In this document: in pieces, positions 23,529 to 52,611 of the stretch | How positions within the stretch are numbered: position 1 is the first letter of the stretch | Layout of the letters: every line of letters begins with the position of its first letter | Origin: a virus | Lineage: Duplodnaviria > Heunggongvirae > Uroviricota > Caudoviricetes | Reading direction: 5' to 3' (one strand) | Length of the DNA: 64,000 bases | IMG/VR virus record: IMGVR_UViG_3300028361_000018 | Program-made: the position numbers and the translations under genes | The notes under the pieces: model-generated | What the model was told of the DNA's origin: nothing | Database searches by the model: none | What the model saw: the letters and a program-made list of their open reading frames with translations, nothing else

Positions 23529-25265
23529 ATGAGATATACCGAGTTTAAGTTAAACGAGGGCTTTAAAGAAGTACAACAAAAATTTAGCCAAGAGGCAGAT
23601 CCTACAGAAGTAGCATCTGCCTTCGACGTGTTCAAAAAGCTAGTAAATGCAAATCGTATATCTGGTCAAGAACGCAATATTGATTGGTGGGGCAAACAGG
23701 GGTGGTCTGCATTTGCTGAGTACGTGACAGCCATAGACGAGAGGCCCAGTTCTTCAGAACAAGACAAGCGCACAAAGAAAGGCGAAAGTCACGTATTAGA
23801 AGATTCTAGTCAGTGGTTGATTGTAGTGCCACTAGACAAAGATGCCAGTTGTTTCCATGGTAAGAAAAGCGATTGGTGTACAACCAAACCCACTCGATCA
23901 CATTTCGAACAATACTTTCGTGACAGTAGTATTACGCTAATTTATTTCTTCCGTCAGTTAGATGGAGCCATGTGGGCCATGGCTGTTAGCCCAAATAAAA
24001 GATCAGAATACTTTGATCAACAAGATGAATCGTTGTCGTCTGCTCAATTTAATAAGCAAACAGGCCTAAACAGCAACAAGTACATCGAAATGGTTGGTGG
24101 CAAGACAGAAGTTGGTCAAAAAGCCACTGCTAGTCGAGACGTGATGAAAGCTGACTTGAAGACTCTTCAAGGTTACATTGGAAAGCTGAGACGGATGGGG
24201 AGCCCGCGACGAAGTGCAAAAATTGAAACACTGATGCTGGTTGTTAAAGATCCGACGTCAATAGAAGAATATTTCTATATACTGCATGAAGTCGACGGGC
24301 CGGTAGAAGTAGATCAGCAAGTACAAACTTTAGTTGCTAACTCTGCTGAAGATGCTATCAAATATCTACAAAATGTTAGTGTAAAGACAGTTAAAGTACT
24401 AGAAAGAAACCTACCTCCTAATCAATCAATGAGCAATATGCTACACCCTACTGAACAAGCACTTGCTTATATAGCTAGTAAAGGAGCATTGGCTGCTGCG
24501 TATGCACGTCGAATAATAAAAGGTCCGTGGCCCGAAGCCGAAGCTGCTATTGCGGAAGACGGCCTAGGAGCAGCAATTTATGCACTGGATGTCATTAACA
24601 AAGACAAAGAACAACCAGTTAGGTGGCCACCAGGTGAGGCAGCTATTGCACAAAGCCCTAGAGGATCATTAATATACGCACGTGATGTACTTAACAAGCC
24701 ATGGCCGCCAGGTGAAGCTGCTATTGCAAAAGATGCCGAAACATCTCTAGAATATGCTCGCGAGATAATTAAAGGCAAGTGGCCAGCAGGTGAGGAGACT
24801 ATTGCACAAGACCCTTCTACATCCAGTAGGTATGCTATTGAAGTGCTTAATCAAGGAAAAAATAAAAAAGAAAGATGGCTTCCTGGTGAAGATGCTATTG
24901 CTACTGAATCATTTGCGGCTTATCAGTACGCAAGAATGGTAATAAGAGGACGTTGGAAACCCGGTGAAGATGCTATTGCGCTGGATGGGTACAACGCTGC
25001 AATGTATGCTACTGAAATATTAGAACGTGAGTGGCCAGCAGCCGAATCTGTTATTTCTCAGGACGCTTACGGTGCATTAGTATACGCTCGCGGAATAATC
25101 GAAGGAGAATGGCCCGAAGGAGAAGCTGCTATGGCAACTTTATCTGATGCAGCATACGAGTATGCCATAGACGTACTAGAAGATCAATTCCTAGAAGGTG
25201 AAGATGCAATACGTGCCGACACGTTCTTATGGCCGAAGTATAAACGACGGTTTGGCATCGGTTAA
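23529..25265 (+). CDS. paralogous repeat-family protein 2 (N-domain + ~10 x 26-aa repeats)
   Basis: 578 aa. Same N-domain as the 9789 ORF. C-terminal half is tandem WP(P/E)GEAAIA..D...AY.YAR..I.G units. Ends ...YKRRFGIG like the 27067 ORF. Confidence 0.65.
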   Translation: MRYTEFKLNEGFKEVQQKFSQEADPTEVASAFDVFKKLVNANRISGQERNIDWWGKQGWSAFAEYVTAIDERPSSSEQDKRTKKGESHVLEDSSQWLIVVPLDKDASCFHGKKSDWCTTKPTRSHFEQYFRDSSITLIYFFRQLDGAMWAMAVSPNKRSEYFDQQDESLSSAQFNKQTGLNSNKYIEMVGGKTEVGQKATASRDVMKADLKTLQGYIGKLRRMGSPRRSAKIETLMLVVKDPTSIEEYFYILHEVDGPVEVDQQVQTLVANSAEDAIKYLQNVSVKTVKVLERNLPPNQSMSNMLHPTEQALAYIASKGALAAAYARRIIKGPWPEAEAAIAEDGLGAAIYALDVINKDKEQPVRWPPGEAAIAQSPRGSLIYARDVLNKPWPPGEAAIAKDAETSLEYAREIIKGKWPAGEETIAQDPSTSSRYAIEVLNQGKNKKERWLPGEDAIATESFAAYQYARMVIRGRWKPGEDAIALDGYNAAMYATEILEREWPAAESVISQDAYGALVYARGIIEGEWPEGEAAMATLSDAAYEYAIDVLEDQFLEGEDAIRADTFLWPKYKRRFGIG

Positions 25266-25291: not shown

Positions 25292-27055
25292 ATGAGATAT
25301 CAAGAGTTTAAGCTAAACGAGGGATACAAGGAAGTACAACAGAAGTTCAGTCAAGAAGCAGATCCTACTGAAGTAGCAAGTGCTTTTGACGTGTTCAAAA
25401 AACTAGTAAGTGCTAATCGCATCAAAGGCAACGAACGCAATATTGATTGGTGGGGCAAACAGGGGTGGCCTGCGTTTATTGAATACGTGACCGCCATTGA
25501 TGAACGACCTAGCGAGGCCGAACAAAAAGCTCGAAAAGGCAAAGGTGAAAGTCATGTACTAGAAGAAACTGCCGAGTGGTTTATTGTCGTCCCACTGGAC
25601 AAGGACGCCAGTTGCTTTCACGGTAAAAAAAGCGATTGGTGCACAACTAAGCCAACACAAGGCCATTTCGAATCTTACTTTCGCGACTATGACGTTACAC
25701 TGATCTACTTCTTTCGTCAGTCAGATGGAGCCATGTGGGCTATGGCAGTTTATCCCAATAAAAAAGCAGAGTATTTTGATCAGCAGGATGATTCGCTTGA
25801 TGATGAAGAATTCGAGAAGCAAACAGGTCTGGATCCCAACAAATACACCGAGCTAGTTGGCGGTAAAACTGATGTTGGACAAAAGGCCACTATTAATCGA
25901 GACATCATGAAGACCGACTTTAACACCTTAACAGGTTACATTAAAAAATTAGAACAAATGAGTAACCCACGCCGAAGTGCAAAGATTGAAACCTTACTGT
26001 TGAAAGTTAAAGACTCTAGACTAATAAAAGATTATTTAAGGACACTATATAATTATAGCGGACCAGTGGAGGTAGATCAACAACTACAAAGTCTAGTTGC
26101 TGGCGGTGATGGGGCGGTTGGTATTAGATTTTTGAACAATGTTAGTGTAAAGACAGTTAAAATACTAGGAAGGCAAGAAGATCTCAGGCATATGATGAAA
26201 AACTTGCGGCACCCTTCTAAAGAAGCGATGGAATACATTACCGACACAGGTAGACTAGCAGTCGCATACGCAAGATATGTGATCGAGGGTCAGTGGCCTC
26301 TAGGCGAAGCTGCTATTGCCGCAGATGCACAATCAGCGTTCAGCTATGCTAGAGAAGTAATCAACGACGGTGGTGGGCCTTGGGACGAGAAAGTTAGGTG
26401 GCCGCCCGGCGAAGCTGCTATTGCCACAAATGCAGAAGCAGCCTATATGTATGCTGACCAGATAATTAAAGGCCCCTGGCCCCCGGGAGAAGCTGCTATT
26501 GTTACCGATACACAATCAGCCTATAGATATGCCAGCGCAGTAATCAACAGAAGTACCTTTGGCAACGATCGTGTTAGGTGGCCGCCTGGTGAAGCTGCTA
26601 TTGCACAAGACGCATATACTTCTATTGACTACGCAAGAAATGTCGTAAGAGGCAGATGGCCACAAGGTGAGGCTGCTATTGCCTCAGATGCAGATACGGC
26701 CTATAAGTATGCTCGCGAGATAATTAAAGGAAGGTTTCCAGAAGGAGAAGCTGCTATTGCCCAAGATGCCGAAACAGCTTATAAATATGCTGACCTGATA
26801 ATTAAAGGAAGGTTTCCAGAAGGTGAAGCTGCTATTCTTACAGACGCATATACTTCTATTGACTACGCAAGAAATGTCATAAGAGGCAGATGGCCACAAG
26901 GTGAGGCTGTTATTGCCGCAGAGGCTGCAACTGCGTATGCCTATGCAAAGGATGTGATAAAAGGCAAATGGCCTCCAGGTGAAGCTGCTATTGATAAAGA
27001 TTATGATTTTAGAAGGGCGTATTCAAGCTTTTTAAATCCGATTCGTAACAATTAA
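25292..27055 (+). CDS. paralogous repeat-family protein 3 (N-domain + ~10 x 26-aa repeats)
   Basis: 587 aa. Repeats are nearly perfect, e.g. RWPQGEAAIASDADTAYKYAREIIKG / RFPEGEAAIAQDAETAYKYADLIIKG. 78-bp periodicity is visible in the DNA (gaagctgctattgc recurs). Confidence 0.65.
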   Translation: MRYQEFKLNEGYKEVQQKFSQEADPTEVASAFDVFKKLVSANRIKGNERNIDWWGKQGWPAFIEYVTAIDERPSEAEQKARKGKGESHVLEETAEWFIVVPLDKDASCFHGKKSDWCTTKPTQGHFESYFRDYDVTLIYFFRQSDGAMWAMAVYPNKKAEYFDQQDDSLDDEEFEKQTGLDPNKYTELVGGKTDVGQKATINRDIMKTDFNTLTGYIKKLEQMSNPRRSAKIETLLLKVKDSRLIKDYLRTLYNYSGPVEVDQQLQSLVAGGDGAVGIRFLNNVSVKTVKILGRQEDLRHMMKNLRHPSKEAMEYITDTGRLAVAYARYVIEGQWPLGEAAIAADAQSAFSYAREVINDGGGPWDEKVRWPPGEAAIATNAEAAYMYADQIIKGPWPPGEAAIVTDTQSAYRYASAVINRSTFGNDRVRWPPGEAAIAQDAYTSIDYARNVVRGRWPQGEAAIASDADTAYKYAREIIKGRFPEGEAAIAQDAETAYKYADLIIKGRFPEGEAAILTDAYTSIDYARNVIRGRWPQGEAVIAAEAATAYAYAKDVIKGKWPPGEAAIDKDYDFRRAYSSFLNPIRNN

Positions 27056-27066: not shown

Positions 27067-28377
27067 ATGAGATATAACGAATTTAAACTAAACGAGGGCT
27101 TCAAGGAAGTACAACTGAAGTTTAGTCAGGAAGCAGATCCTACTGAGGTAGCGTCTGCTTTCGACGTGTTCAAAAAGTTGGTCAGTGACAATCGCATCTC
27201 AGGCCAAGAACGAAATATTGATTGGTGGGGCAAACAGGGGTGGTCCGCATTTAGTGAGTACGTGACTGCAATTGATGAAAGACCTAGTTCTTCTGAACAA
27301 AAGATGCGAAAAAACAAAGGCACGAGTCACGTAATAGAGGAATCTGCTGACTGGTTCATTGTAGTGCCACTAGACAAAGACGCCAGTTGTTTCTACGGCA
27401 AAAAAAGTAGCTGGTGTACCACCAAGCCAACGCAAGCACACTTCGAATCGTACTTCCGTGGCAAAGCTATTACACTGATCTATTTCTTCCGTCAGTCAGA
27501 TGGCGCCATGTGGGCTATGGCTGTTGCTCCAAATAAAGGAGCAGAATACTTTAATCAAAAAGACCAATCGCTTGATGTAATTGAATTCAACAAGCAGACA
27601 GGTCTAGACAGCAACAAGTACATTGAGATGGTAGGCGGTAAAACAGAGATAGGTAAAAAAACTGCTGCTAGTCGTAAAGAAATGCGAGCTAGTTTAAAAA
27701 ATCTAAAGGACTTTCTTAAAAAATTAGAACAAATGGATGCTCCGCAACGAAGTGCAAAAATAGAAACAATGATGTTACAGGTTAAGGATCCAAGATTAAT
27801 AGAAGAATATTTTAAAATATTACACAAGCAAAGTGGGCCAGTGGAAATAGATCAACAACTGCAAACTCTTGTTGCTAATATTTCTACTGATGCTGTTAGA
27901 TATTTACAAGACGTTAGTATAAAGACAGTTAAAATAATGGAAAGAAATGCTACGCCTGGTGAAGTAATAAATAATGTCCGAAATCCTACTAAACAAGTAC
28001 TTGCTTATATAGCTAGTAGAGGAGCATTGGCTGTTGCTTATGCTGCTATAGTAATAAAGGGTAGATGGCCTCTGGGCGAAGTTGTAATTGCACAAGATGG
28101 TTATTATGCAGCGTTATACGCCCGAGATATATTAAAACGCGAGTGGCCCGAAGCCGAATCTGCTATTGCCAACAATAGCTCCGGTTCATTTATGTATGCA
28201 CATGCAGTACTCAACAAAGCATGGCCTCCTGGAGAAGCTGCAATTGCCACGCACACTAATTACTCTTTTCGATATGCTACAGAAGTACTAGAAGATCGAT
28301 TTTTAAAAGGAGAGAATGCAATACGTAAAGCACAATCGGCGTGGAATGCATACAAAAAACGGTTTGGCATCGGTTAA
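27067..28377 (+). CDS. paralogous repeat-family protein 4 (N-domain + ~5 repeats)
   Basis: 436 aa. Same N-domain. C-terminus ...AYKKRFGIG. Confidence 0.65.
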   Translation: MRYNEFKLNEGFKEVQLKFSQEADPTEVASAFDVFKKLVSDNRISGQERNIDWWGKQGWSAFSEYVTAIDERPSSSEQKMRKNKGTSHVIEESADWFIVVPLDKDASCFYGKKSSWCTTKPTQAHFESYFRGKAITLIYFFRQSDGAMWAMAVAPNKGAEYFNQKDQSLDVIEFNKQTGLDSNKYIEMVGGKTEIGKKTAASRKEMRASLKNLKDFLKKLEQMDAPQRSAKIETMMLQVKDPRLIEEYFKILHKQSGPVEIDQQLQTLVANISTDAVRYLQDVSIKTVKIMERNATPGEVINNVRNPTKQVLAYIASRGALAVAYAAIVIKGRWPLGEVVIAQDGYYAALYARDILKREWPEAESAIANNSSGSFMYAHAVLNKAWPPGEAAIATHTNYSFRYATEVLEDRFLKGENAIRKAQSAWNAYKKRFGIG

Positions 28378-28403: not shown

Positions 28404-29594
28404 ATGAGATATAACGAGTTTAAATTAACCGAAGGTTACAAGGAAGTACAACAGAAGTTTAGCCAGGAGGCGGATCCTACAGAGGTAGCAAGTGCTTTTG
28501 ATATCTTCAAAAAATTAGTAAGTGCCAATCGCATCTCAGGTCAAGAAAGAAATATTGATTGGTGGGGCAAACAGGGATGGTCTGCATTTACTGAATACGT
28601 AACAGCCATTGACGAACGCCCTAGCTCTTCAGAACAAAAAGCTCGCACTAAAAAAGGAAATAGCTACGTATTAGAAGAAACTGACGAGTGGCTAATTGTA
28701 GTACCATTGGACAAGGACGCCAGTTGCTTTCACGGCAAGAACAGTGATTGGTGCACAACCAAACCCACTCAAAACCATTTTGAACAATACTTTCGTGACT
28801 TCAGCGTTACATTAATCTATTTCTTTCGTCAGTCAGATGGTGCTATGTGGGCCATGACAGTTAGTACAAAGAAAGGGCCAGAGTATTTTGACCAGCAAGA
28901 TACATCATTATCTATGGAAGAATTCAATCAACAAACAGGACTAGACAGCAACAAGTACGCCGAACTAGTCGGAGGAGAAACTGAGGTTGGCCAACAAGCC
29001 ACTGCTAGTCGAGACGTAATGAAAGCCGACTTAGAGAATCTAAAAAGTCTTATTGAAAAATTAGTACAAATGGATGCTCCGCGGCGCAGTGCAAAAATTG
29101 AAACAATGCTGTTGAGGGTTAAGGACGCAAAGTCAATAAAAAGATATTTAATAATACTATATCAAGCCAACGGTCTAGTCGAATTAGATCAACAACTACA
29201 AACTCTAGTTGCTACAAATGTAACGGGATCTATTAAATATTTGAAAGGTGTCACTGCAAAGACAATTAAACAACTAGAACAAAATAATGAAGACGAAGAT
29301 GAAGATGAAGATGGACCCAACTACGAAATATTCGGGGATTTACAAGACCTTACCAAAGAAGCGCTTGCTTATATAGCTAGCAAAAGCTATTTGTCCCTTG
29401 CGTATGCACTTCACGTAGTCGACGGTACGTGGCCACCGGGCGAGGCAGCTATTGCAAAAGATCCAGACATATCTTTAGAATACGCACAGAATGTAATTGG
29501 CGGAAGATTCCCTGCAGGTGAAGCTGCTATGACTAGTGACGAAAATATTAAGCGGTTGTATAAACTTACAATACTTAATCATGAAACAAGTTAA
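28404..29594 (+). CDS. paralogous repeat-family protein 5 (N-domain + 2-3 repeats, EDEDEDED linker)
   Basis: 396 aa. Same N-domain (DKDASCFHGKNSDWCTTKPT). Fewer repeats. Confidence 0.65.
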   Translation: MRYNEFKLTEGYKEVQQKFSQEADPTEVASAFDIFKKLVSANRISGQERNIDWWGKQGWSAFTEYVTAIDERPSSSEQKARTKKGNSYVLEETDEWLIVVPLDKDASCFHGKNSDWCTTKPTQNHFEQYFRDFSVTLIYFFRQSDGAMWAMTVSTKKGPEYFDQQDTSLSMEEFNQQTGLDSNKYAELVGGETEVGQQATASRDVMKADLENLKSLIEKLVQMDAPRRSAKIETMLLRVKDAKSIKRYLIILYQANGLVELDQQLQTLVATNVTGSIKYLKGVTAKTIKQLEQNNEDEDEDEDGPNYEIFGDLQDLTKEALAYIASKSYLSLAYALHVVDGTWPPGEAAIAKDPDISLEYAQNVIGGRFPAGEAAMTSDENIKRLYKLTILNHETS

Positions 29595-30255: not shown

Positions 30256-30465
30256 ATGGAATTCTTTTTAATGATGTTTGCTTTGATAGCAGGCTATATG
30301 CTCGGGTTTTCAAGCGGGCACCACAAGGGCACAATCGATGCGCACTCAGAAGTGGCAAGAGAGTGCCACAAGCTAGGAAAATTTTACGTGGGCAAAGAAG
30401 TTTTCACTTGCTCTGAGATTAACAAATGCGTCCCCAAGAGGAGAAACAATGAACAAGCTATGTGA
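30256..30465 (+). CDS. small membrane protein (69 aa)
   Basis: Hydrophobic N-terminus MEFFLMMFALIAGYMLGF. Confidence 0.35.
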   Translation: MEFFLMMFALIAGYMLGFSSGHHKGTIDAHSEVARECHKLGKFYVGKEVFTCSEINKCVPKRRNNEQAM

Positions 30466-31465
30466 AATGGTACACGGCAGTCACCTATACGGTTTAAACA
30501 CCGAGAACAGTGATATGGACTACAAAGGTGTGTTCTTGCCCACGTTGGACGAAATGGTCACAATGACAGCCAGCCACGAAATCCGACACAGTACAGGCGA
30601 TGCACACCAAAAAAACTCAAGTGAAGACGTAGACACTGTATTCTTTAGTCTACAAAAATTTATCAAAATGGCTTGTGACGGAGACACGGTGGCGATAGAC
30701 ATGATTCACTGTGACAATGCCCATCTTATCTCAAGCAGCCCTGTATGGGAGGCAATTGTAGCAAATCGTCACTTGTTCTACACCAAGAACATGAAGGCGT
30801 TTTTAGGCTACTGTCGCAAGCAAGCGTCAAAGTACGGTGTAAAAGGTTCAAGGCTCAAGTCCATGGAAGATGTGTTAACAGTGCTACACAGCGCATTACT
30901 TGTTAACCCCGAAGCCAGAATGGACGAGTCTACCAGCACAGAAACACAGTTGCTTGCTGTCGAAGCAGCTCACCCAGGAAAGGTCACTATTAAGGACGGG
31001 TTCTATAAAGGCAGTAGATTCGTTAACAAGAAAATTGTAGAAGTGTGTGACGCCAAGTATGACTTTACTACTAAAATATCATATGTTGTGGACTCACTAC
31101 AGAAAAAATATGACGCATACGGTCATCGTGCGCAATTGGCCAAAAACAACGAAAATATTGACTGGAAGGCCATTTCTCATAGTTTGCGGGCAGGGTACCA
31201 GTTACTAGAAATCTACGAAACTGGCGATCTAAAATACCCGTTAAAGTATCGTGAGTTCGTTCTTGCTGTCAAGCAAGGTAAATTAGACTTTACTGCTACT
31301 GTGCAACCTGCGTTAGAGGACGTAATTGCAAAAGTTGAACGGCTGGCAGCCATTGTGGTACTACCTGAAACTGTCAATCGCAAGTACTGGGAACAGTTTA
31401 TTGTAAACGTTTACGACGGATTCTATGACTACACTGAGCATAAAGAATCGTTAACTGCAAAATAG
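30449..31465 (+). CDS. Pol-beta-superfamily nucleotidyltransferase (isotype unknown; CCA-adding-enzyme-like or CD-NTase-like)
   Basis: 338 aa. N-terminal VHGSHLYGLNTENSDMDYKGVF is the [G]GS-x9-DxD minimal nucleotidyltransferase signature (compare GGAVRD...D.D of CCA enzymes), followed by a ~250-aa helical region. Confidence 0.5.
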   Translation: MNKLCEMVHGSHLYGLNTENSDMDYKGVFLPTLDEMVTMTASHEIRHSTGDAHQKNSSEDVDTVFFSLQKFIKMACDGDTVAIDMIHCDNAHLISSSPVWEAIVANRHLFYTKNMKAFLGYCRKQASKYGVKGSRLKSMEDVLTVLHSALLVNPEARMDESTSTETQLLAVEAAHPGKVTIKDGFYKGSRFVNKKIVEVCDAKYDFTTKISYVVDSLQKKYDAYGHRAQLAKNNENIDWKAISHSLRAGYQLLEIYETGDLKYPLKYREFVLAVKQGKLDFTATVQPALEDVIAKVERLAAIVVLPETVNRKYWEQFIVNVYDGFYDYTEHKESLTAK

Positions 31466-31567
31466 TGGTTGACGCTAAGCTAAAAGGCTGTAAAGTAGTA
31501 CTTGTTGTAGCAAGAAGCTACTTTTAAAAACTTAAACTTAAACTAAAATGAACCCAAAGGTAATACA

Positions 31568-32458
31568 ATGAAAAAGACAATGCTGAAACTATTTGCCGTA
31601 ATGGCAGTTACACTTGCAATGGTTGGCTGCGGCCAAGTTGTAGAGGTAGGGCCTGCTCAAGTTGCAAAGGTTATGTCTCAATCGGGATATAAAGCAAATA
31701 TTATTCCAACTTCCAAGTTCCGACTTGATATGTGTTATGCATATTGTGACAAGCTAGTTGTACTTGATGCCAGTGACCGCAGCTTTAAAGAAAGCATGGA
31801 CCTGTTTATGCCGCAAGACAAGCTGTTAATGACGTTCGAGATCCGGGCAACTATGTCACTTGCGTCTAAAGACTTTGAGCAGGTGTTTAATAAAGTACAG
31901 CCGGCACCAATGGGCGATAGCGAGCGTATGTATATGATTCCGCTAGAAAAAGTATATATGACCTACGCTCGAGATATCATCCGAGCCGAGGCACGGGAGT
32001 TCCTATCACAGTACACTATTGCAGAAATTGCAAGCTCACGTGAGGCCATTAACGCACAGCTATCAGAACGCCTATCTAAGAGCATCGCAGAACGAACTCC
32101 GTTTATGGTGCGATATATTGGCATTGCAGACCTTGCATACCCAACAATTATTGTGAAAGCGCAAGAAAATGCGGCAGAGCGTCGTGAGATGATTAACCAA
32201 GAAGCTGCACAGCTTGAAATCAGCAAGGTACAACTTGATCGTAAGCTACAGGAACAGACCATGCAGCGAAAAATCGACGTTGAAAAAGCTGAGGCCGAAG
32301 CACAAGTCAACAAGATCATGGGCGAGTCAATGACACCAGAGTACAAGGTGTACAAAAGCTTCCAAGTAATGGAATCAATGGCTAGCTCCAGTAACAAGGT
32401 GTTTATGCCAGCAGAGATGCTTAGCACAGTAGCAGGACAAATGCAACTAGGCAAGTAA
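31568..32458 (+). CDS. SPFH/Band-7 (HflK/C-like) domain lipoprotein
   Basis: 296 aa. Lipobox MKKTMLKLFAVMAVTLAMVGC. C-terminal coiled-coil EAE/AQ-rich region typical of SPFH proteins. Confidence 0.55.
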   Translation: MKKTMLKLFAVMAVTLAMVGCGQVVEVGPAQVAKVMSQSGYKANIIPTSKFRLDMCYAYCDKLVVLDASDRSFKESMDLFMPQDKLLMTFEIRATMSLASKDFEQVFNKVQPAPMGDSERMYMIPLEKVYMTYARDIIRAEAREFLSQYTIAEIASSREAINAQLSERLSKSIAERTPFMVRYIGIADLAYPTIIVKAQENAAERREMINQEAAQLEISKVQLDRKLQEQTMQRKIDVEKAEAEAQVNKIMGESMTPEYKVYKSFQVMESMASSSNKVFMPAEMLSTVAGQMQLGK

Positions 32459-32466
32459 ACTTAACT

Positions 32467-32489
32467 GCTAGGGGACTTGCTCCCCTAGC
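32467..32489 (+). terminator. hairpin terminator-like element
   Basis: GCTAGGGGA-CTTG-CTCCCCTAGC perfect 9-bp stem directly after the stop of the SPFH gene, followed by a T-containing tract. Confidence 0.5.
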
Positions 32490-32516
32490 ATACTCTTTGT
32501 TAATAAGGATTATAAA

Positions 32517-32885
32517 ATGGAATACGTAATTGCCTTCGCGCAAACATTTGTGCCTAAAATGTTGTTTGGTTTATTTGCTTGGGTTGCAATCAGCGCAGTA
32601 ATGAAGCAGTTTAAAGAGTTTAAGGGTAAGCCAGTCTACAAAAACAATAGCTGGTACCTTGGTGTTTTTTTGCTAATAGCACTTGTAATGACTGCGTCCA
32701 GTACTAGTATTTCGTACAAGCACCAGACGTTTGATGCAGACCAGGAAAGCTATCAAATCGAACTAATCAAGCAGCAAGAACAAGAACGCACTGACCTAGT
32801 TATTGAAGATCGAACACGCAAAGATTACACAGTAACGGATGAAGAATGGAAAGATAACTCCAGCTACACCAAGGGCGTAAAATGA
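32517..32885 (+). CDS. membrane protein (122 aa, two predicted TM helices)
   Basis: Hydrophobic segments [10 protein letters not shown] and [13 protein letters not shown]. Confidence 0.4.
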
Positions 32886-33172
32886 ACAAGCACCAGGGTT
32901 TTACACTAATCGAGTTAATGATTGTTGTTGCTATTATTCTTATCTTAGCAGCAATTGCTATTCCGGCTTATCAAGAGCATAACAACCCCACGACATCAGA
33001 ACAAAAGTACACACAATGTATCAACGGTGTTAAGTTTACAACAGCTAACACTCCTACACAAATTATCGGTGAAGACGGGCGCGGAATTAGTTGCAATAGT
33101 AACTCAGCTACTAGTAACCCAGCGCCCAGTGACACCTATAACAACACCTTCGAAAACACCTGGAATAATTAA
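32882..33172 (+). CDS. type IV pilin-like (prepilin N-terminus) protein
   Basis: 96 aa. [33 protein letters not shown] is a textbook class-III signal peptide / N-methylation motif (G|[13 protein letters not shown]). Confidence 0.7.
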
Positions 33173-33178
33173 TACAAG

Positions 33179-33207
33179 TTGACAGGGTTGACAATCTGTC
33201 ATACACT
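33179..33207 (+). promoter_or_regulatory. sigma70-like promoter with tandem TTGACA boxes (TTGACAGGGTTGACA ... TACACT)
   Basis: TTGACA at 33179 and 33188. TACACT 33202-33207. TGACAGGGTTGACAATCTGTCA forms a hairpin. Confidence 0.45.
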
Positions 33208-33240: not shown

Positions 33241-33771
33241 ATGCATGCTTCACTAAATATCAATTCATATATTGGTGACGGCTTTCAAAAAGTCTGCTCA
33301 GTAACTTCTGACAATTCTGTAGACAATAAATGGTTTTATACTGATATTAATCCAGACCTAATGTTTGCAGATCACAGATCATGGATCTATTTTATTGTAG
33401 TTGATGAAGAAGTTTGGAAGGTAGGCGAAACAGGAAACCCGTTAGGCATTCGTGCAAAGAACCCAGAAGCAACACAACCGTTAACCGGAACACGCGGACG
33501 GCTGGGTCGTTACCGATCCGGCGACTATCGTGTAGGAACATACGGAGACACTGACTGGGACATTCGAGTACGATTAAACGATGTAATAGCAGATGGCAGT
33601 AACGTAGAATTTTGGGCAAGACAGTGCCCCATTGATAAAGTAGAAGTCACAGTAGGAGGCAAACCTTTCACTGTGGGCACAGCGTATCATAAAGAACTTG
33701 AAATGGCGCACTTGGATTATATCTTTAACAGCGTCGACGAGCTTCCTACGCTCAACAAGTTTAGAAAATAG
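33241..33771 (+). CDS. hypothetical protein (176 aa)
   Basis: ORF track. Confidence 0.4.
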   Translation: MHASLNINSYIGDGFQKVCSVTSDNSVDNKWFYTDINPDLMFADHRSWIYFIVVDEEVWKVGETGNPLGIRAKNPEATQPLTGTRGRLGRYRSGDYRVGTYGDTDWDIRVRLNDVIADGSNVEFWARQCPIDKVEVTVGGKPFTVGTAYHKELEMAHLDYIFNSVDELPTLNKFRK

Positions 33772-35772: not shown

Positions 35773-36624
35773 ATGAGATTAGACGCCCTTTCAGCAATCG
35801 ACTTTTACAAAGCAGATCACAGACGCCAGTACCCAGAAGGTACTGAGCTAGTCTACAGCAACTTTACACCACGCAGTATGCGCCTGTACAAAGGCAACGC
35901 TACTGAGACTGTAGTGTTCGGACTACAGGGATTCTGCAAATGGTTCCTCATTGATATGTGGAACGAAACTTTCTTCAACAAGCCAAAGGCAGAAGTTGTA
36001 GCCAAGTATCAAAGAAGACTTGACTCTAGCTTAGGTGACGGCGCTGTGCCAATGGATCACGTCGAAGCATTACACGACTTGGGCTATTTGCCTTTAGAGA
36101 TTAAAGGTCTGCCAGAAGGCGTAAGTGTGCCGGAAAAAGTAGCTGTTCTTACAGTCAAGAATACAGTACCAGAGTTTTACTGGCTGGTTAACTACATTGA
36201 AAGCGTGATGAGCTCAGAGCTGTGGAAGCCAAGCGTAGTTGCTACGCTCGCAAAAGAGTATCGCGAAATACTTACAAAGTATGCTAATCTAACTGGCGCA
36301 TCACTCGATGGCGTTCCTATTCAGTGTCACGACTTTAGCTTCCGGGGAATGAGTGGACTACACGATTCCGCAAGCTCAGGGGCCGGGCACTTGCTGTCCT
36401 TTGTGGGCACAGACGGTGTTCCATCAATTGACTATTTAGAAGAGTACTACAACGCAGATCCAGCTAAAGAAATGATTGGGTGTAGCATTCCTGCAACCGA
36501 ACATTCGGTCATGAGCTGTAACGTAGGAAACTTATCTAAGTTAATCGGCGAGCAGCTGGAAGAAAATCCCAACCTAAGTCTCGAAGACGCGCACCGACGT
36601 GTTCTTCAGATAGCCAAGGGTTAG
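35773..36624 (+). CDS. nadV: nicotinamide phosphoribosyltransferase (NAMPT/NadV), N-terminal fragment
   Basis: 283 aa. DFYKADHRRQYP, SFRGMS, GHLLSFVGTDGV...IPATEHSVMS align with the N-terminal ~330 residues of NAMPT (FKGTDTV...VPAAEHST). The ORF then runs into unrelated sequence and overlaps the antisense HNH gene. Confidence 0.75.
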   Translation: MRLDALSAIDFYKADHRRQYPEGTELVYSNFTPRSMRLYKGNATETVVFGLQGFCKWFLIDMWNETFFNKPKAEVVAKYQRRLDSSLGDGAVPMDHVEALHDLGYLPLEIKGLPEGVSVPEKVAVLTVKNTVPEFYWLVNYIESVMSSELWKPSVVATLAKEYREILTKYANLTGASLDGVPIQCHDFSFRGMSGLHDSASSGAGHLLSFVGTDGVPSIDYLEEYYNADPAKEMIGCSIPATEHSVMSCNVGNLSKLIGEQLEENPNLSLEDAHRRVLQIAKG

Positions 36625-37261
36625 TTAACATTTGCTTAGTAACAATCCTGTCAGGATTTGAGCAAAAGTTGCGCACTGTTCCGGCGGTATAAGGAGTGCT
36701 TCGGGCTGCTTGCGGAGCAGACCCGAAAGTTCCTTTAGGGGTTACATAGTGCCCCTTAAAGTTAGCATTCCTTTCAGGATGCGCAAGTTTTGTATTTCTT
36801 ATCTTGTCGACAACGTCAGGTGTTCTTGGTATGTTATATAAGTGAGATTCTTTACCACCTTTATGAGGGTTGTTAGTTTTAATAAGTTGTCTAATAATAT
36901 TAATGTGCTCAGGCGATAGTGTTTTTCCAGAATGTAAGTTAGAATTAGCAATAGCAAATTGCTCTTTAGCAGTCTGAAATGTTCGAGAAGTAATTTTGTA
37001 GTATCGTTGAACATCACCGTTAAGTTGATTGTTCATTGCCCAGAAAGCAAATTTTAGTTTATCAGATTCTGGATATATCTTACAAAGCATCCTGTGACAT
37101 ATAAAATGTACACGAGCAGACAAGTATACTAAATTAGTAGAACAGTTGGTTCCGCCGATCGACTTAGGAACAATATGGTGCCTTTCAGAATAAACGTCTT
37201 TTGGCTTGACACGTTGCCCAAACTGTGCTATTATAGCGTTATAAGTTTTTATGTAATTCAT
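36536..37261 (-). CDS. HNH homing endonuclease inserted in the NAMPT gene (antisense orientation)
   Basis: 241 aa, - strand. ERHHIVPKSIGGTNCSTNLVYLSARVHFICH is an HNH core shared with the 7571 and 49150 ORFs. Lies exactly in the gap between the two NAMPT fragments. Confidence 0.7.
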   Translation of the reverse strand: MNYIKTYNAIIAQFGQRVKPKDVYSERHHIVPKSIGGTNCSTNLVYLSARVHFICHRMLCKIYPESDKLKFAFWAMNNQLNGDVQRYYKITSRTFQTAKEQFAIANSNLHSGKTLSPEHINIIRQLIKTNNPHKGGKESHLYNIPRTPDVVDKIRNTKLAHPERNANFKGHYVTPKGTFGSAPQAARSTPYTAGTVRNFCSNPDRIVTKQMLTNPWLSEEHVGARLRDLGWDFLPAARRLT

Positions 37262-37306
37262 TATTTTACACTCCGTTATGTGTATTTATACAAAAAAGGA
37301 AATTTT

Positions 37307-38116
37307 ATGTCGTATACCGAAAAAGAAATCATGAACTACTGCGAGCAGGAACTGTTTCGGCACTTGGTCGAAGACCTGTATCCAACAGGGCTTGTATCTA
37401 TTGTTAGTGACACGTGGGACTTTTGGACTGTGGTTACTGAGTATATTCCTGCGCTCAAAGACGTTATTATGGCTCGCCAACCAAACGCCATTGGCCTTAA
37501 CAAGGTAGTGTTGCGTCCAGACAGCGGAGACCCTGTAAAGATCATCACAGGCTACACTGAAGACGAATATTACATCGAAGAAGACGGTGAGCTCATTAGC
37601 TACAAGGACGGTATCACACTGTCTCCTGCAGAAGTCAAAGGCGCTATCGAATGCCTGTGGGACACTTTTGGTGGTACGCTAACCGACTGTGGTTATAGAG
37701 AATTAGACGAGCATATTGGCTTAATCTATGGCGATAGCATTACGCTAGAACGCGCACACGCAATTCTACGCAGACTGGCAGACAAAGGCTTTGCTAGCAG
37801 CAACGTTGTTCTTGGAGTGGGGTCATACACTTACCAGCACAACACACGCGACAGCATGGGGTTTGCAATGAAGGCAACCTATGGTGAGGTCAACGGAGTA
37901 GGACGTGAAATCTTTAAAGACCCAGCAACAGACAGCGGCACAAAGAAGAGTGCTAAAGGTTTGTTACGTGTTGATCTAGTAGACGGAGAATACGTAATGC
38001 AAGACCAAGTAACGTGGGCTGAAGAAGCAGGCGGTGAGCTAAAGACTGTGTTTAAGGACAGCAAGCTCTACAACCAAACCAGCTTGGGTGAGATCAGGCA
38101 GCGTATACAGGGTTAA
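37307..38116 (+). CDS. nadV: nicotinamide phosphoribosyltransferase (NAMPT/NadV), C-terminal fragment
   Basis: Track ORF 37175-38116. ATG 37307 with AAGGA RBS. TEKEIMNYCEQ...VSIVSDTWD...LRPDSGDP...KGLLRV align with NAMPT residues ~330-490 (HEKDAFEH...VSVVSDSYD...IRPDSGNP...KGRL). Confidence 0.75.
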   Translation: MSYTEKEIMNYCEQELFRHLVEDLYPTGLVSIVSDTWDFWTVVTEYIPALKDVIMARQPNAIGLNKVVLRPDSGDPVKIITGYTEDEYYIEEDGELISYKDGITLSPAEVKGAIECLWDTFGGTLTDCGYRELDEHIGLIYGDSITLERAHAILRRLADKGFASSNVVLGVGSYTYQHNTRDSMGFAMKATYGEVNGVGREIFKDPATDSGTKKSAKGLLRVDLVDGEYVMQDQVTWAEEAGGELKTVFKDSKLYNQTSLGEIRQRIQG

Positions 38117-48547: not shown

Positions 48548-48633
48548 GGAAGGTGCCGCTAATTGGATGGCAACTGGATTTGAACTCCAGGGTATTTGCA
48601 AAACAGGTAGGGGTTCGATTCCTCCACCTTCCT
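48548..48633 (+). tRNA. tRNA-Ser (anticodon UGA), type II
   Basis: Acceptor GGAAGGT/ACCTTCC. Anticodon arm CTGGA-TTTGAAC-TCCAG. Long variable arm. T-arm GGGG-TTCGATT-CCTC. CCA not encoded (ends TCA). Confidence 0.65.
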
Positions 48634-48844
48634 CAAACTTTAAAGTAAAACACACTAAGACGTGGATGTCACTCCAGACGTGGGGAAGACAGGTTCGAGA
48701 CCTGTAATGGTAAATCCTGGTTTCGAAACCAGGTAGTGTGTTTTACTTTAAAGTTTATAGTAAAGCATACTAAGGCATGACAGACACTTTTAACGTGTTT
48801 GACTAGGTCCTACACCCAATAGTATGCTTTACTATAAAGTTTAT

Positions 48845-48935
48845 AGTAGATTGGCTGAGTGATCTAAGGCGTTCCGCTGCTAACGGAAAAGTTCACATTG
48901 TGGGCTCGAAGGTTTGAATCCTTCATCTACTGCCA
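48845..48935 (+). tRNA. tRNA-Ser (anticodon GCU), type II
   Basis: Acceptor AGTAGAT/ATCTACT + G + CCA. Anticodon arm TTCCG-CTGCTAA-CGGAA. Long variable arm. T-arm GAAGG-TTTGAAT-CCTTC. Confidence 0.7.
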
Positions 48936-49149
48936 TTTAGGAGGACAACCCCCGGGCTCTCCGCTATTTTAATGTAAATCAAGGAAATATAATGTATCCA
49001 TATCCAGGATTTTACGTAATGAGAACGAACTGCGGAAAGTGATGTCTAGGACAATAATAGACCGTGGAGCAGCAGAAAGTTGGAAAAGTTTTTGTGAAGA
49101 CTCAGAATCCAAACAAGAGTTTTTTATTGTAGAAATAAAGTAAAAGTTT

Positions 49150-49917
49150 ATGCCTCAGGTACAGGGTACGGATTGGTCTCCAAAACCAGTAAGCGGGGTT
49201 CGCAAAATGATAAATAGTCGTATGAACTATAACAAACATTATGCGACATTGATTGAACGAGCAAAAACACGAGTATTTGACGGTTACACTGAGAAACATC
49301 ATATTGTTCCTAGATGCTTAGGCGGCACAGATGACAGAGAGAATATAGTAGCATTAACTCCTGAAGAGCACTATGTAGCACATCAGTTACTAGTTAAGAT
49401 GCACCCAAAGGAACATAAGTTGGTATACGCTGCTAATATGATGACTGTTAGTAGTAGAAAGAATTTGCGTAGTAATAAACAGTACGGATGGATAAAGAAA
49501 CGTTACATTAGCGAGTGTAGAAAACGAAAAGGAAGTGAAAACTCGTCGTACGGGAAGCCCTGGTATTATAATCCTGAGACTTTAGAAAACGGGAAGTTTC
49601 TTAAAGAAAATGTTCCAATAGGCTGGATTAAAGGGAGAAAATCAACACAGAAGCATTGTACTGGTTGTCTGGTTAAAATTACTTCACAGCATGCAAAATA
49701 TTGTCAAGGATGCCTTACTAAATTACAGCTAAGTCGTGTAACAAAAAACGAATTAGAATTTTTGAAAAGAAAAGACAAGTTTATTAGCCTAATAGAAGAA
49801 GGTTATGCCTTCTCGACAGCACTCGACAAAATGGGATATGGCAATTCATATTCGTTAAAGTCCGGGGTAGGCAAGTGGGCTAAAGAAGTTTTATATGCGT
49901 CGGGTACTGGGTACTGA
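49150..49917 (+). CDS. HNH homing endonuclease
   Basis: 255 aa. TEKHHIVPRCLGGTDDRENIVALTPEEHYVAHQLL HNH core. Flanked by ~30-bp imperfect direct repeats (49160-49192 and 49900-49932). Confidence 0.65.
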   Translation: MPQVQGTDWSPKPVSGVRKMINSRMNYNKHYATLIERAKTRVFDGYTEKHHIVPRCLGGTDDRENIVALTPEEHYVAHQLLVKMHPKEHKLVYAANMMTVSSRKNLRSNKQYGWIKKRYISECRKRKGSENSSYGKPWYYNPETLENGKFLKENVPIGWIKGRKSTQKHCTGCLVKITSQHAKYCQGCLTKLQLSRVTKNELEFLKRKDKFISLIEEGYAFSTALDKMGYGNSYSLKSGVGKWAKEVLYASGTGY

Positions 49918-49983
49918 TTGGTCTCCAAAACCGATCTTGTGAGGATCGTAACCTCGTCGACGCGCCAATTTAGAGGAAGTGTT

Positions 49984-50157
49984 ATGATAGCGTGTGTATG
50001 CAGAAACATTAAAGACAGCAGCTACGACACGCTAGAGGCTCTTAAACTGCGTATTATGCAGGATGACGCTGTATGCGGTAAGTGTCAAGTTTATTATAAA
50101 CGAACAGAAAGAGCAGTAAATAGTACAGCCAACTACGGGGTGTCTAGATTAGGCTAG
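49984..50157 (+). CDS. small Cys-containing hypothetical (57 aa)
   Basis: Track ORF 49918-50157. ATG at 49984. Confidence 0.3.
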   Translation: MIACVCRNIKDSSYDTLEALKLRIMQDDAVCGKCQVYYKRTERAVNSTANYGVSRLG

Positions 50158-50227
50158 CATAGTGAGGACCTAGTCCAATAACTGAGCAGGGCGGTGCTGC
50201 TACACTCCACATATTGTAAATGAGGAG

Positions 50228-50256
50228 TTGACAGATAGTAAATACATTGCTATTGT
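50228..50256 (+). promoter_or_regulatory. sigma70-like promoter TTGACA-N17-TATTGT
   Basis: TTGACA 50228-50233, TATTGT 50251-50256. Confidence 0.4.
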
Positions 50257-50282
50257 AGTTAAACATTAAAGTAAAGAGGATA

Positions 50283-50750: not shown

Positions 50751-50816
50751 GGGATTGACAAACACAACACAGATGTTATTATAGTTATACATTAAAGCAA
50801 GATAAGTGTTATTTGC

Positions 50817-52609: not shown

Positions 52610-52611
52610 AC

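Follow-up and report, generated by a model that had tools for sequence, protein, structure and literature searches.

A phage SPFH/Band-7 lipoprotein operon carrying a truncated type IV mini-pilin, with a possible role in interference with host pili

Three consecutive genes in a 64-kb stretch of phage DNA (hereafter the window) are predicted to encode an SPFH/Band-7 lipoprotein (gene A), a small two-TM membrane protein (gene B) and a strongly truncated type IV prepilin (gene C). We favour, tentatively, a reading of A-B-C as an envelope operon whose mini-pilin would enter the host pilus pathway via the prepilin peptidase PilD, with or inside an SPFH scaffold, and so bring about superinfection exclusion or receptor masking. 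An SPFH lipoprotein, a two-TM protein and a prepilin had been described as consecutive in the initial annotation of this DNA, and all three open reading frames were found on the plus strand at exactly the coordinates given there. What the present analysis would add, as judged from sequence, is that the SPFH and two-TM genes form a conserved pair to which the mini-pilin is an optional addition, that the truncation of the pilin is strong, and that the association recurs with a second SPFH family. The features are as follows.

31469-31496, plus strand: candidate sigma-70-like operon promoter, TTGACG-N16-TAAAGT (promoter scan, 9/12 consensus matches)
31568-32458, plus strand: gene A, predicted SPFH/Band-7 lipoprotein, 296 aa (Pfam Band_7, phrog_200, AF2/Foldseek)
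31568-31630, plus strand: predicted signal peptide and lipobox of A (Cys21 is codon 31628-31630)
32466-32490, plus strand: GC-rich stem-loop between A and B, 10-bp stem (6 GC), -19.9 kcal/mol, z = -3.45
32517-32885, plus strand: gene B, predicted two-TM protein, 122 aa (hydrophobic segments 11-29 and 48-66)
32882-33172, plus strand: gene C, predicted mini-pilin, 96 aa, 90 aa when mature (N_methyl, TIGR02532)
32882-32899, plus strand: leader of C, MNKHQG
32900-32986, plus strand: predicted alpha1-N helix of C
32987-33094, plus strand: Cys46-Cys71 head of C
33095-33169, plus strand: variable Asn/Ser/Thr tail of C
33179-33207, plus strand: promoter of the next transcription unit, TTGACA-N17-TACACT, taken as the 3' boundary of the operon

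The product of gene A is matched by the Pfam Band_7 model (E 1e-9, 39.1 bits against a cut-off of 23.6) and by the PHROG family phrog_200, annotated 'lipoprotein' (E 1.7e-41). The Band_7 alignment pairs residues 37-217 of A with positions 21-173 of the 176 in the profile and takes in the SPFH domain proper, beyond the coiled coil. Sequence searches against the PDB were uninformative, the single A sequence finding prohibitin only (E 0.011) and a 28-sequence A profile finding no match among the PDB sequences, and a fold search was therefore needed. The AF2 model of A (pLDDT 80.4) gave full-length Foldseek matches to prohibitin, stomatin, erlin, HflK/C and QmcA (267-310 columns, probability 1.00, E 1.7e-11 to 1.8e-8), and in its predicted fold SPFH1/2 alpha/beta domains lead into a long CC helix, with a C-terminal helix after it. 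The concern that the SPFH similarity might reflect coiled-coil composition is answered by the domain-level Band_7 match and the full-length fold matches. The N-terminus of A, MKKTMLKLFAVMAVTLAMVG followed directly by Cys21, satisfies the lipobox rule, with A-M-V-G-C21 closing the signal peptide. Cys21, Cys56 and Cys60 are unchanged in 28 homologues, a lipobox is found in the viral loci of A's own SPFH family (fam1), and homologues are named 'predicted small lipoprotein' in their source records. Together with the model, these sequence features identify A as a genuine SPFH/Band-7 protein whose lipobox cysteine is invariant, and as a predicted lipoprotein, as had been proposed. The residue at position +2 after the lipobox cysteine is Gly and not Asp, which under E. 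coli rules would route A to the outer membrane, apart from the inner-membrane pilins. This +2 Gly counts against a reading in which the SPFH protein and the mini-pilin are coupled.

The description of B as a small membrane protein crossing the membrane twice agrees with its two hydrophobic segments. Between them lies a K-rich cytoplasmic loop, and the hydrophilic C-terminal tail of about 55 aa is predicted to be periplasmic. Proteins like B share the motifs MEY[LV]IN, S-x-TYKH, [IV]-x-D-R-x-R-P and [FW]-D-x-x-V-x-Y, and no family match was found for B in Pfam, NCBIfam or PADLOC. As SPFH genes can share an operon with NfeD, an identity of B with NfeD was considered and rejected, no NfeD match being found when eight members of the B family were compared with Pfam at E <= 1. 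B has been filed as a putative analogue of the NfeD-type partner rather than as an NfeD protein. PADLOC models searched against A, B and C at E <= 0.01 gave no match to any of the three.

The product of gene C begins MNKHQG/FTLIE, that is with a short basic leader, Gly(-1), Phe(+1) and Glu(+5). This prepilin N-terminus is recognised above the curated thresholds of both Pfam N_methyl PF07963 (40.4 bits against 21.2) and TIGR02532 (36.3 bits against 16.3). Residues 2-34 align to the PilA chain 9laa (E 1.3e-8), and in the mature protein 24 of the first 27 residues, among them Phe1, Glu5, Pro22 and Tyr24, are identical to the type IVa major-pilin consensus. The Pfam Pilin model PF00114, which bacterial relatives carry, does not match C. 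In the AF2 model, which is of moderate confidence (pLDDT 64), a helix spans residues 9-34 and ends at about residue 34 at the sequence NNP, beyond which only a beta-hairpin (43-54) and a disordered tail (75-96) are predicted; Foldseek with this model gave no meaningful match and no pilin head. The lack of alpha1-C and of a globular head makes C a truncated mini-pilin and not a canonical pilin. On sequence and model C is thus a predicted type IVa prepilin which keeps the full N-terminus and bears a head of about 35 residues, putatively disulfide-bonded, in place of alpha1-C and the globular head. Among 15 members of the mini-pilin family G6, T8, L9, I10, E11, I14, C46, G49, Q60, G66 and C71 are invariant and F7 and G68 nearly so, and a set of 41 members shows no variation at G6, F7, T8, I10 and E11. 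The 64-kb window has no prepilin gene besides C. The window also encodes no PilD-like polytopic protein, which fits a dependence of C on the prepilin peptidase of the host.

Several features suggest that the three genes are transcribed together, in the order promoter, A, hairpin, B, C. A TTGAC[AG]...TA..(A/G)T element is present upstream of the SPFH gene in six related loci (L011, L004, L008, L012, L014 and L015). A hairpin of different sequence occupies the A-B position in L012, L014 and L015, and is accompanied by a T-run in L012 and L014. The A-B hairpin of the window found no family in Rfam and is read as a possible leaky terminator or attenuator. The stop codon of B overlaps the start of C (ATGA), the corresponding overlaps across relatives being ATGA or TAATG, and no promoter was found between B and C. 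Since the positions of promoter and hairpin are kept in relatives despite divergence of their sequences, and since B and C overlap, we consider 31469-33172 to be a single predicted transcription unit behind a host-type sigma-70 promoter. From the type of this promoter the unit would be transcribed early.

At the 3' end, a terminator-like hairpin followed by a strong promoter had been proposed. The hairpin did not survive closer analysis: the sequence at 33178-33204 folds at chance level (z = -0.8, with 40/200 shuffles folding equally well) and has no T-run, and the strong hairpin of the operon lies instead between A and B. The promoter is well founded. TTGACR-N17-TAYACT occurs nine times in exact form in the window, where chance would give 0.07, each time on the plus strand and co-oriented, and the promoter at 33179-33207 belongs to this nine-member phage promoter set; a promoter is kept after the pilin gene in L004, L008, L012 and L014. 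The source genome looks like that of a large lytic phage, with 101/105 open reading frames of the window co-oriented, 12 tRNA genes, genes of nucleotide and NAD metabolism, and no integrase seen in the 64 kb. An Rfam search of a gap in the NAMPT gene gave no match. The GC content is 41% and one relative comes from the sample LV_Brine, observations that give no more than a hint of the host.

The A+B pair is found well beyond this phage. A B-like protein follows the SPFH gene in 22/23 IMG/VR loci and also does so in ACP17, PT11-V22, KVP40 and a Methylotuvimicrobium chromosome, where the 12.9 kb analysed with the locus contained no obvious phage genes. Phage SPFH modules as such occur in hundreds of phage genomes, including those of KVP40-like, Vi01-like and Acinetobacter phages. 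Relatives of the window keep all three genes together at SPFH identities of 98% (L004-L010), 83% (L012/13) and 73% (L014), and the dN/dS values of A (0.03-0.12), B (0.07-0.30) and C (0.09-0.40) indicate purifying selection on all three. From these comparisons A+B appears to be a widespread two-gene module and C an add-on of this lineage.

The family to which C belongs comprises prepilins of 66-110 aa with the motif C-[IV]-x-G-[YF]-K-F...Q-[IV]-L-D-x-x-G-x-G-x-x-C. It contains more than 120 clusters (90% identity) at E < 1e-28 and 445 representatives (50% identity) at E <= 1e-10, all members being encoded on metagenomic contigs no longer than 167 kb, and appears to be a large family of phage mini-pilins that has had no name so far. 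In 11 of the 20 contigs examined an SPFH lipoprotein gene is followed, 0-2 genes further downstream, by the mini-pilin, and such adjacency was seen for 0 of about 105 other pilin-like open reading frames on viral contigs (Fisher's exact p = 9e-11, for 20 contigs that are not phylogenetically independent and may represent perhaps 4-8 lineages). Outside the lineage of the window the SPFH partner belongs to a second family (fam2), for which BLASTP finds no similarity to A (E = 1.3) and hhalign gives a probability of only 33%. The pairing thus recurs with two barely related SPFH families, which argues against simple inheritance of one cassette. A test of the association with the fam1 profile returned the lineage of the query only, the second family having emerged from the neighbours of mini-pilins. 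A small two-TM gene as the constant upstream neighbour of the mini-pilin was considered and rejected, the upstream genes in L261, L263, L265 and L266 being soluble or unrelated. Searches of 50,697 phage records by megablast with the locus and by tblastn with C found nothing, and tblastn with a PAK-type PilA N-terminus found three records only, which are likely bacterial; the low-complexity filter probably hides pilin N-termini, and isolates with mini-pilins could therefore not be listed.

These same data bear on the possibility that the genes are independent neighbours, A+B being self-contained and C an unrelated moron in a variable downstream slot, perhaps active on pili but with no link to SPFH function. 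The pair stands without an adjoining pilin in 22/23 fam1 loci, in 78 of the 80 best fam2 loci, in the isolates KVP40, ACP17, PT11-V22, AB-Navy71, Ab15 and BUCT-ZZ01 and on the bacterial chromosome; the slot 3' of the fam2 SPFH gene is occupied by small genes that vary from phage to phage; and 9/20 mini-pilin contigs have no adjacent SPFH lipoprotein within the DNA available. For two random genes, however, adjacency would be expected in roughly 3% of cases, against the 11/20 found, and it is absent among the other viral pilin-like genes. Further points against independence are the pairing with two barely related SPFH families, the promoterless B-C interval, and the stop/start overlaps of the mini-pilin with the preceding gene in the window, L113, L022, L261 and L262. 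We regard independence as being on the unlikely side, although it is the strongest of the alternatives.

In the favoured reading of A-B-C as an envelope operon, A would form an SPFH scaffold held by its N-terminal lipid anchor on the periplasmic side of the membrane, with B as its conserved two-TM inner-membrane partner. The A-B hairpin probably reduces expression of B and C relative to A, an arrangement that would be suited to a scaffold of many subunits with few clients, and B and C would be translationally coupled. C keeps the leader, Gly-1, Phe+1, Glu+5 and a hydrophobic alpha1-N with the Pro22 kink. The prepilin peptidase of the host, whose pili are presumed, would cleave and methylate C, and the processed protein could then join the assembly pathway of the type IV pilus or of a related pseudopilus. 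Its role there may be that of a decoy, a subunit which caps or weakens the filament, gives it a new surface or jams the platform. The phage receptor would in this way be removed or masked soon after infection, resulting in superinfection exclusion or in progeny being spared adsorption to doomed cells. By analogy with other SPFH proteins, A and B may build a membrane-attached ring or cage, and this could supply a microdomain where the mini-pilin does its work or where host pilins are retained. The weakest step is the physical link from cage to mini-pilin, which only gene linkage suggests.

A bolder version of this reading makes the cage itself part of the attack. The SPFH cage and its TM partner, with the decoy mini-pilin as bait, would corral or sequester host pilins or cap the platform or secretin. 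Together they would make up a hitherto unrecognised phage weapon in two parts, directed at type IV filaments, and within minutes of infection pili would be shut down along with DNA uptake and the entry of phages that depend on pili. We think this quite unlikely; if true, phage SPFH proteins would have a first function and SPFH cages a new class of client.

The nearest folds to A, the client-enclosing SPFH cages HflK/C-FtsH and QmcA-YbbJ, invite an explanation with no pilus target at all, in which the A/B cage stabilises or compartmentalises the envelope and C is a client or adaptor that is processed by PilD and stays out of filaments. Such a membrane-homeostasis module might control a host protease such as FtsH, resist membrane-attacking abortive-infection effectors, or block DNA entry in the manner of T4 Imm and Sp. 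The occurrence of A+B on a bacterial chromosome, the host-type promoter, the predicted facing of all three products towards the periplasm or inner membrane, and a C head that resembles no pilin head are all in keeping with it. The consensus positions of C, however, serve the packing of the filament core, and a protein that was just an anchor would hardly be expected to conserve them across 445 clusters. B has no NfeD similarity and nothing points to FtsH; the modulation of FtsH mentioned in the initial annotation likewise found no support in this analysis. We judge this explanation distinctly improbable.

If C does enter a filament system, that system need not be the pilus. C might instead mimic a pseudopilin of type II secretion or competence, with secretion or DNA uptake being blocked or diverted as a result. 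PilD-type processing is common to all type IV filament systems, and the GspG, GspH and ComGC models match the N-terminus of C with E values of 5e-7 to 1.5e-6. Type IVa pilins nevertheless score best (PpdD 4.8e-12, PilA 1.9e-9, PDB PilA chains 1e-8), and the AIAIPAYQ segment of C is typical of major pilins, which makes a pseudopilin mimic very improbable. A lysis cassette, with the lipoprotein and membrane proteins as spanins or holin, has a superficial likeness to A-B-C in the OM-type lipobox, the small two-TM protein with a charged tail and the type II membrane protein, but was dropped as scarcely credible given the size and fold of A (296 aa and SPFH, against about 60 aa for an o-spanin), the sigma-70-type promoter, the lack of a nearby endolysin and the presence of A+B on a chromosome away from obvious phage genes.

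Among known SPFH systems, A resembles HflK/C-FtsH (7vhq, 7wi3, 9cz2) and QmcA-YbbJ (8z5g) in fold over its full length, the best TM-scores (0.57-0.59) being to HflK/C chains. HflK/C faces the periplasm, as is predicted for A, and the SPFH-NfeD operon of QmcA-YbbJ resembles A-B in including a small membrane protein. A differs from HflK/C and QmcA in having a lipid anchor rather than a TM helix and in a sequence similarity that falls below detection against the PDB, and the A-B pair differs from both systems in that B has no OB-fold or NfeD match and there is no evident protease partner. Small inner-membrane, periplasmic or lipoprotein products of lytic phages that block later phages at the envelope are also known in T4 Imm, T4 Sp and T5 Llp. 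Their targets are DNA injection or FhuA rather than pili, and they are presumably without sequence or fold relationship to A, B or C. Besides being major receptors for phages, type IV pili serve motility, adhesion and DNA uptake, and a phage protein able to disable them is a tool and a drug lead.

Closer to A are other phage proteins of phrog_200, of which A is a member, with 32-55% identity to KVP40.0339, to ACP17, to the 'stomatin-like protein' of Alteromonas PT11-V22 and to the 'Band 7 protein' of XacN1. They share the lipobox and the downstream two-TM partner and differ in that none of the isolates has a pilin gene beside the pair. The function of phage SPFH genes is described as unknown in papers that mention them (PMC13239085, PMC7760394). 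The linkage described here makes this function testable, with piliation, twitching and adsorption of pilus phages as the read-out.

For C the nearest precedent is P-FimU of F10-like Pseudomonas prophages, which is built into the pilus tip and blocks pilus-tip phages (Sztanko et al., Cell Rep 2026; PMC12952977) and which is the only experimentally characterised phage pilin mimic found in the literature. The two are alike in having a phage-encoded prepilin N-terminus, P-FimU using the machinery of the host (PMC12952977). P-FimU is described there as a minor (tip) pilin of full size that carries extra loops and is expressed from temperate prophages, whereas C is of truncated major-pilin type with an unrelated head and lies in an SPFH-linked operon of a virulent phage. 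An assignment of C to the P-FimU type was considered and rejected, GspH/FimU-type models matching the N-terminus only (for GspH residues 4-41, 29.8 bits against a cut-off of 80) and the genome looking lytic and not like a prophage. Of the initial annotation's overall reading the protein identities have held, while altered pili and superinfection exclusion stay conditional, now with P-FimU as an experimental precedent (PMC12952977). The same source lists, on bioinformatic grounds, PilA-like proteins of virulent phages, including a family of truncated PilA proteins of about 60 residues in six Pseudomonas phages, for which its authors propose either incorporation without phage-binding sites or inhibition of assembly (PMC12952977). 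C resembles these in coming from a virulent phage and in keeping the N-terminal helix with most of the head gone. The truncated PilA proteins are described as bare N-terminal fragments, with no SPFH linkage reported (PMC12952977), whereas C has a conserved Cys-Cys head that sets its 445 clusters apart as a separate family. The preferential linkage of mini-pilins to SPFH lipoprotein modules suggests a way for phages to tamper with host pili, and the 445-cluster family of C (50% identity) would be a set of truncated major-pilin mimics in virulent phages that is far larger than the P-FimU precedent.

Three consecutive plus-strand genes, which lie exactly where the initial annotation had placed them, encode an SPFH/Band-7 lipoprotein (A), a small protein with two transmembrane (TM) segments (B) and a truncated type IVa prepilin, or mini-pilin (C). 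The identities and folds of their products are established. The genes form a single transcription unit with a host-type promoter in front, and each of them is under purifying selection.

31469-31496, + strand: sigma-70-like promoter of the A-B-C unit, TTGACG-N16-TAAAGT, 5' of A
31568-32458, + strand: A, 296 aa; N-terminus MKKTMLKLFAVMAVTLAMVG-C, a signal peptide with a terminal lipobox
32466-32490, between A and B: hairpin, 10-bp stem, -19.9 kcal/mol, z = -3.45
32517-32885, + strand: B, 122 aa, two hydrophobic segments
32882-33172, + strand: C, 96 aa, mature form 90 residues
33179-33207, + strand: promoter TTGACA-N17-TACACT of the next transcription unit, where the A-B-C unit ends
23151, 33179, 33782, 38126, 39478, 44723, 48452, 57759 and 61786, + strand: exact copies of TTGACR-N17-TAYACT

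The promoter upstream of A is kept in relatives, and the stop codon of B overlaps the start of C (ATGA in the window and in the related viral contigs L011, L004 and L008; TAATG in L012). The hairpin between A and B is conserved in position and not in sequence, with a different GC-rich stem in L012, L014 and L015, two of which have a T-run. We read it as a leaky terminator or attenuator setting the expression of A above that of B and C, as would be fitting if each client needed many scaffold subunits. The terminator-like hairpin proposed to follow C was misplaced, this stretch folding no better than shuffled sequence (z = -0.8). The strong promoter proposed at the same site is borne out as one of nine exact TTGACR-N17-TAYACT matches in the window, where chance would give 0.07; all nine point in the direction of the genes. 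They represent a set of phage-specific sigma-70-type promoters that map the transcription units of the region. Directly 3' of C, an ORF of 176 aa (33241-33771) is assigned to phrog_1111 'endonuclease', with a weak match to a URI-fold toxin domain; it is missing here in L012, where the PRPP synthetase gene directly follows the pilin gene, and is probably a mobile endonuclease insertion.

A matches Pfam Band_7 (E 1e-9, 39.1 bits, cut-off 23.6) over residues 37-217, that is the SPFH domain itself, and is assigned by PHROGs to phrog_200 'lipoprotein' (1.7e-41), while PDB sequence searches were uninformative. An AlphaFold model (pLDDT 80.4) with SPFH domains, a long helix (193-253) and a C-terminal helix matches prohibitin, stomatin, erlin, HflK/C and QmcA over 267-310 columns (probability 1.00, E 1.7e-11 to 1.8e-8). 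A is therefore a bona fide SPFH protein of full architecture, the similarity amounting to more than coiled-coil composition. A is predicted to carry a lipid anchor in place of a TM helix and to face the periplasm, and the invariance of Cys21 (lipobox), Cys56 and Cys60 among 28 homologues fits a periplasmic, oxidising location. The residue at +2 from the lipobox Cys is Gly, from which A would be sorted to the outer membrane under E. coli rules. Relatives of A in phage isolates number 144 by tblastn and include those of ACP17 (55%), Alteromonas PT11-V22 (54%) and KVP40 (32%), as well as XacN1 and Aeromonas and Pseudomonas phages; a further 330 close relatives come from metagenomes, and one of 62% identity is on a Methylotuvimicrobium chromosome.

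B gave no match to Pfam, NCBIfam, NfeD or PADLOC. A two-TM protein of 117-138 aa is encoded 3' of the SPFH gene in ACP17, PT11-V22, KVP40, a 335-kb jumbo contig and Methylotuvimicrobium. The B-like proteins share the start MEY[LV]IN, a Lys-rich inter-TM loop that the positive-inside rule would place in the cytoplasm, the motif S-x-TYKH following TM2 and a predicted periplasmic tail of ~55 residues with conserved [IV]-x-D-R-x-R-P and [FW]-D-x-x-V-x-Y motifs. At 22 of 23 IMG/VR loci a B-like protein is encoded directly downstream of a gene of the SPFH family of A (family 1), the sequence of the 23rd ending too early to judge. The pairing is obligate, and A+B is a two-gene module conserved among phages and in some bacteria.

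The prepilin N-terminus of C is recognised by both Pfam N_methyl (40.4 bits, cut-off 21.2) and TIGR02532 (36.3 bits, cut-off 16.3), and PHROGs places C with several small pilin-like families including phrog_3433 'pilin'. Within residues 1-27 of the mature form, 24 match the type IVa major-pilin pattern, including Phe1, Glu5, Pro22 and Tyr24. The alpha helix stops at NNP, at about residue 34, and no Pilin domain (PF00114) is found in C by Pfam. In the AlphaFold model (pLDDT 64), for which there was no fold match, residues 9-34 are helical, 43-54 form a beta-hairpin and 75-96 are a disordered tail. Residues C46, G49, F52, Q60, G66, G68 and C71 are kept in six close metagenomic relatives (69-93% identity) and in distant ones, and the Asn/Ser/Thr tail varies by indels. 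The dN/dS of C is 0.09-0.40, and among close relatives its amino-acid sequence has diverged roughly eight times as far as that of A. C is functional and evolves fast; it is not a host fragment in decay.

That relatives would keep the three genes together holds for L004-L011 (SPFH identity 95-98%), L012/13 (83%, pilin of 80 aa) and L014 (73%, pilin of ~88 aa followed by an FG-GAP lipoprotein), and fails at 71% identity in L015/16, where a DUF3307 membrane protein is the third gene in the pilin's place. The lipoprotein of L014 (5784-7319; 511 aa, weak FG-GAP repeats) may be one more surface or periplasmic component added to the operon.

When IMG/VR was scanned with a DNA pattern for the N-termini of type IVa pilins, at least 119 viral loci matched. 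Among the matches listed were 114 complete pilin-like ORFs, ~30 of them shorter than 100 aa, several of these short ORFs carrying the head motif of C, C-[IV]-x-G-[YF]-K-F...Q-[IV]-L-D-x-x-G-x-G-x-x-C; among the same matches the family-1 profile found an SPFH neighbour only in the window phage's own lineage. In L113, L028, L124, L022 and L088 a ~264-aa lipoprotein that is Band_7 by Pfam (E 3e-19 to 5e-15) is encoded 0-2 genes upstream of the mini-pilin. This second phage SPFH family (family 2) has no similarity to A by BLASTP (E = 1.3), an hhalign probability of only 33% and its own preceding gene for a 58-aa two-TM protein. With cases from more pattern scans and six contexts selected with contig size as the sole criterion, an SPFH lipoprotein gene is found 0-2 genes upstream of the mini-pilin on 11 of 20 contigs, against 0 of ~105 other viral pilin-like ORFs among the matches listed, neighbours being scored by the two family profiles, which other SPFH types would escape. 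In addition, a Band_7 gene whose product is TM-anchored stands 2 kb from the mini-pilin of L266. Fisher's exact test gives p = 9e-11 for these phylogenetically related mini-pilin contigs, and p = 5e-5 is obtained with only eight independent lineages, four hits and a background estimated at 3%. The juxtaposition of mini-pilin and SPFH lipoprotein is recurrent.

The converse does not hold. Family 2 occupies at least 536 loci in IMG/VR, with a mini-pilin in only 2 of the best 80, and the slot 3' of its SPFH gene is variable in content. In isolates with family-2-like lipoproteins (Acinetobacter AB-Navy71 and Ab15, Synechococcus BUCT-ZZ01 and Vi01-like phages) the SPFH gene is flanked by small two-TM proteins, with no pilin beside it in the three regions examined. 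From the pilin-less loci and isolates and the variable slot, the core is an SPFH protein with a small TM protein, and the mini-pilin is an optional third part preferring this location. A functional independence of A+B from C would accommodate the optional part more easily than the recurrent adjacency, and is unlikely, if the alternative to be taken most seriously. Other neighbours of mini-pilins include, one gene downstream in L261 (3590-4843), two ClpP-like proteases, one with a weak NfeD1b_N match; a DUF2201 (VWA/metallopeptidase) gene after the mini-pilin in L264 and L265; and a MoxR-like AAA gene before it in L265 (neighbour genes at L264:2310-3503 and L265:1579-2688 and 3583-4788).

A mini-pilin profile built from 41 sequences found, among 1.84 billion proteins, 445 representatives of 50%-identity clusters at E <= 1e-10, compared with 185,945 sequences sharing merely a pilin N-terminus; the top 150 matches are almost all 66-110 aa and end-to-end. 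In a set of 5.8 billion proteins, scores below 1e-28 are reached by more than 120 clusters at 90% identity; among the matches listed none bears a specific name, and none of their contigs exceeds 167 kb. The family looks viral. At least two further short phage prepilin families (L089, L090 and L024; L106 and L054) have other Cys-containing heads, ...C.P[IL]G.D..D..VY.C.DGK[LI]YT and ...DPQTGCQY...TPRLG.DGKQ.C, several members being on jumbo-phage contigs of 107-358 kb.

The window (GC 41.4%) has no nucleotide match among 50,697 phage records, and an SPFH protein identical to A is encoded on a metagenomic contig of 105,894 bp. With 101 of 105 ORFs on the + strand, 12 tRNA genes, nrdA/nrdB, PRPP synthetase and NAMPT, it is the part of a large lytic phage genome that encodes non-structural functions. 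The tRNA genes lie amid small ORFs at 48548-62107 and include two tRNA-Asn(GTT), two tRNA-Ser(TGA) and one tRNA-Ser(GCT). A free-standing homing endonuclease gene (phrog_655, 7571-8626) separates nrdA (5304-7556) from nrdB (8639-9748). NAMPT is in two ORFs (35773-36624 and 37175-38116) with a gap of ~550 bp (36625-37174) that contains a small minus-strand ORF (36799-37014) and no group I/II intron by Rfam; in L012 and L014 it is one ORF of 512-521 aa. In the close relatives L004 (1157-3230), L005 and L006 a minus-strand NUMOD3 homing-endonuclease gene splits the RlaP-type nucleotidyltransferase gene that lies 5' of the SPFH gene; in the window this gene (30449-31465) is uninterrupted. Five paralogues of one family (phrog_17056/28193; 9789-11207, 23529-25265, 25292-27055, 27067-28377 and 28404-29594), four of them in tandem directly 5' of the A-B-C region, have a common ~220-aa N-terminal region (MRYNEFKL.EG[YF]KEVQ.KFSQEADPTEVASAFD) and divergent C-termini.

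The window contains no prepilin gene besides C, and no PilD-like polytopic protein is encoded within it. The host prepilin peptidase, PilD, would process C, which might then be drawn into the assembly pathway of the type IV pilus (or of a related pseudopilus) and serve as a decoy by which the filament is capped, weakened, re-surfaced or jammed; receptor masking or superinfection exclusion would be the outcome. A and B may form a periplasm-facing SPFH ring or cage, the microdomain where C acts. Taken whole, this reading is tentative and falls a little short of probable; the initial annotation, sound in its observations apart from the hairpin, is only partly supported in its interpretation. A module for membrane homeostasis with C merely its client seems distinctly unlikely, and there is only a slim chance that the target of C is a T2SS or competence pseudopilus, its N-terminus following the type IVa major-pilin pattern. 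A lysis cassette is scarcely credible. A-B-C is probably expressed early, to judge from the promoter type.

A pilus decoy would have precedents. Prophage FimU mimics enter the pilus tip and block pilus-tip phages, and virulent phages have PilA-like proteins, including a truncated family of ~60 residues, identified by database search alone, which the authors suggest either are incorporated but offer phages no binding site or inhibit pilus assembly (Sztanko et al., Cell Rep 2026; PMC12952977). The function of phage SPFH genes is given as unknown (PMC13239085; PMC7760394). An HflK/C-like protein of a Pasteurella prophage is present in outer-membrane vesicles and gives TLR1/2 signalling (PMC9872710), and the pilus-dependent Stenotrophomonas phages DLP3 and DLP5 have a 264-aa SPFH protein (PMC7326821), which is anecdotal and carries no weight as evidence. 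We found nothing in the literature that connects phage SPFH genes to pilin genes. Taken singly, A, B and C are of known kinds; as far as we found, there is no earlier description of the recurrent SPFH-lipoprotein/mini-pilin operon or of the head family of the mini-pilins. HflK/C, as is predicted for A, face the periplasm, and B would be a partner analogous to NfeD, without homology to it.
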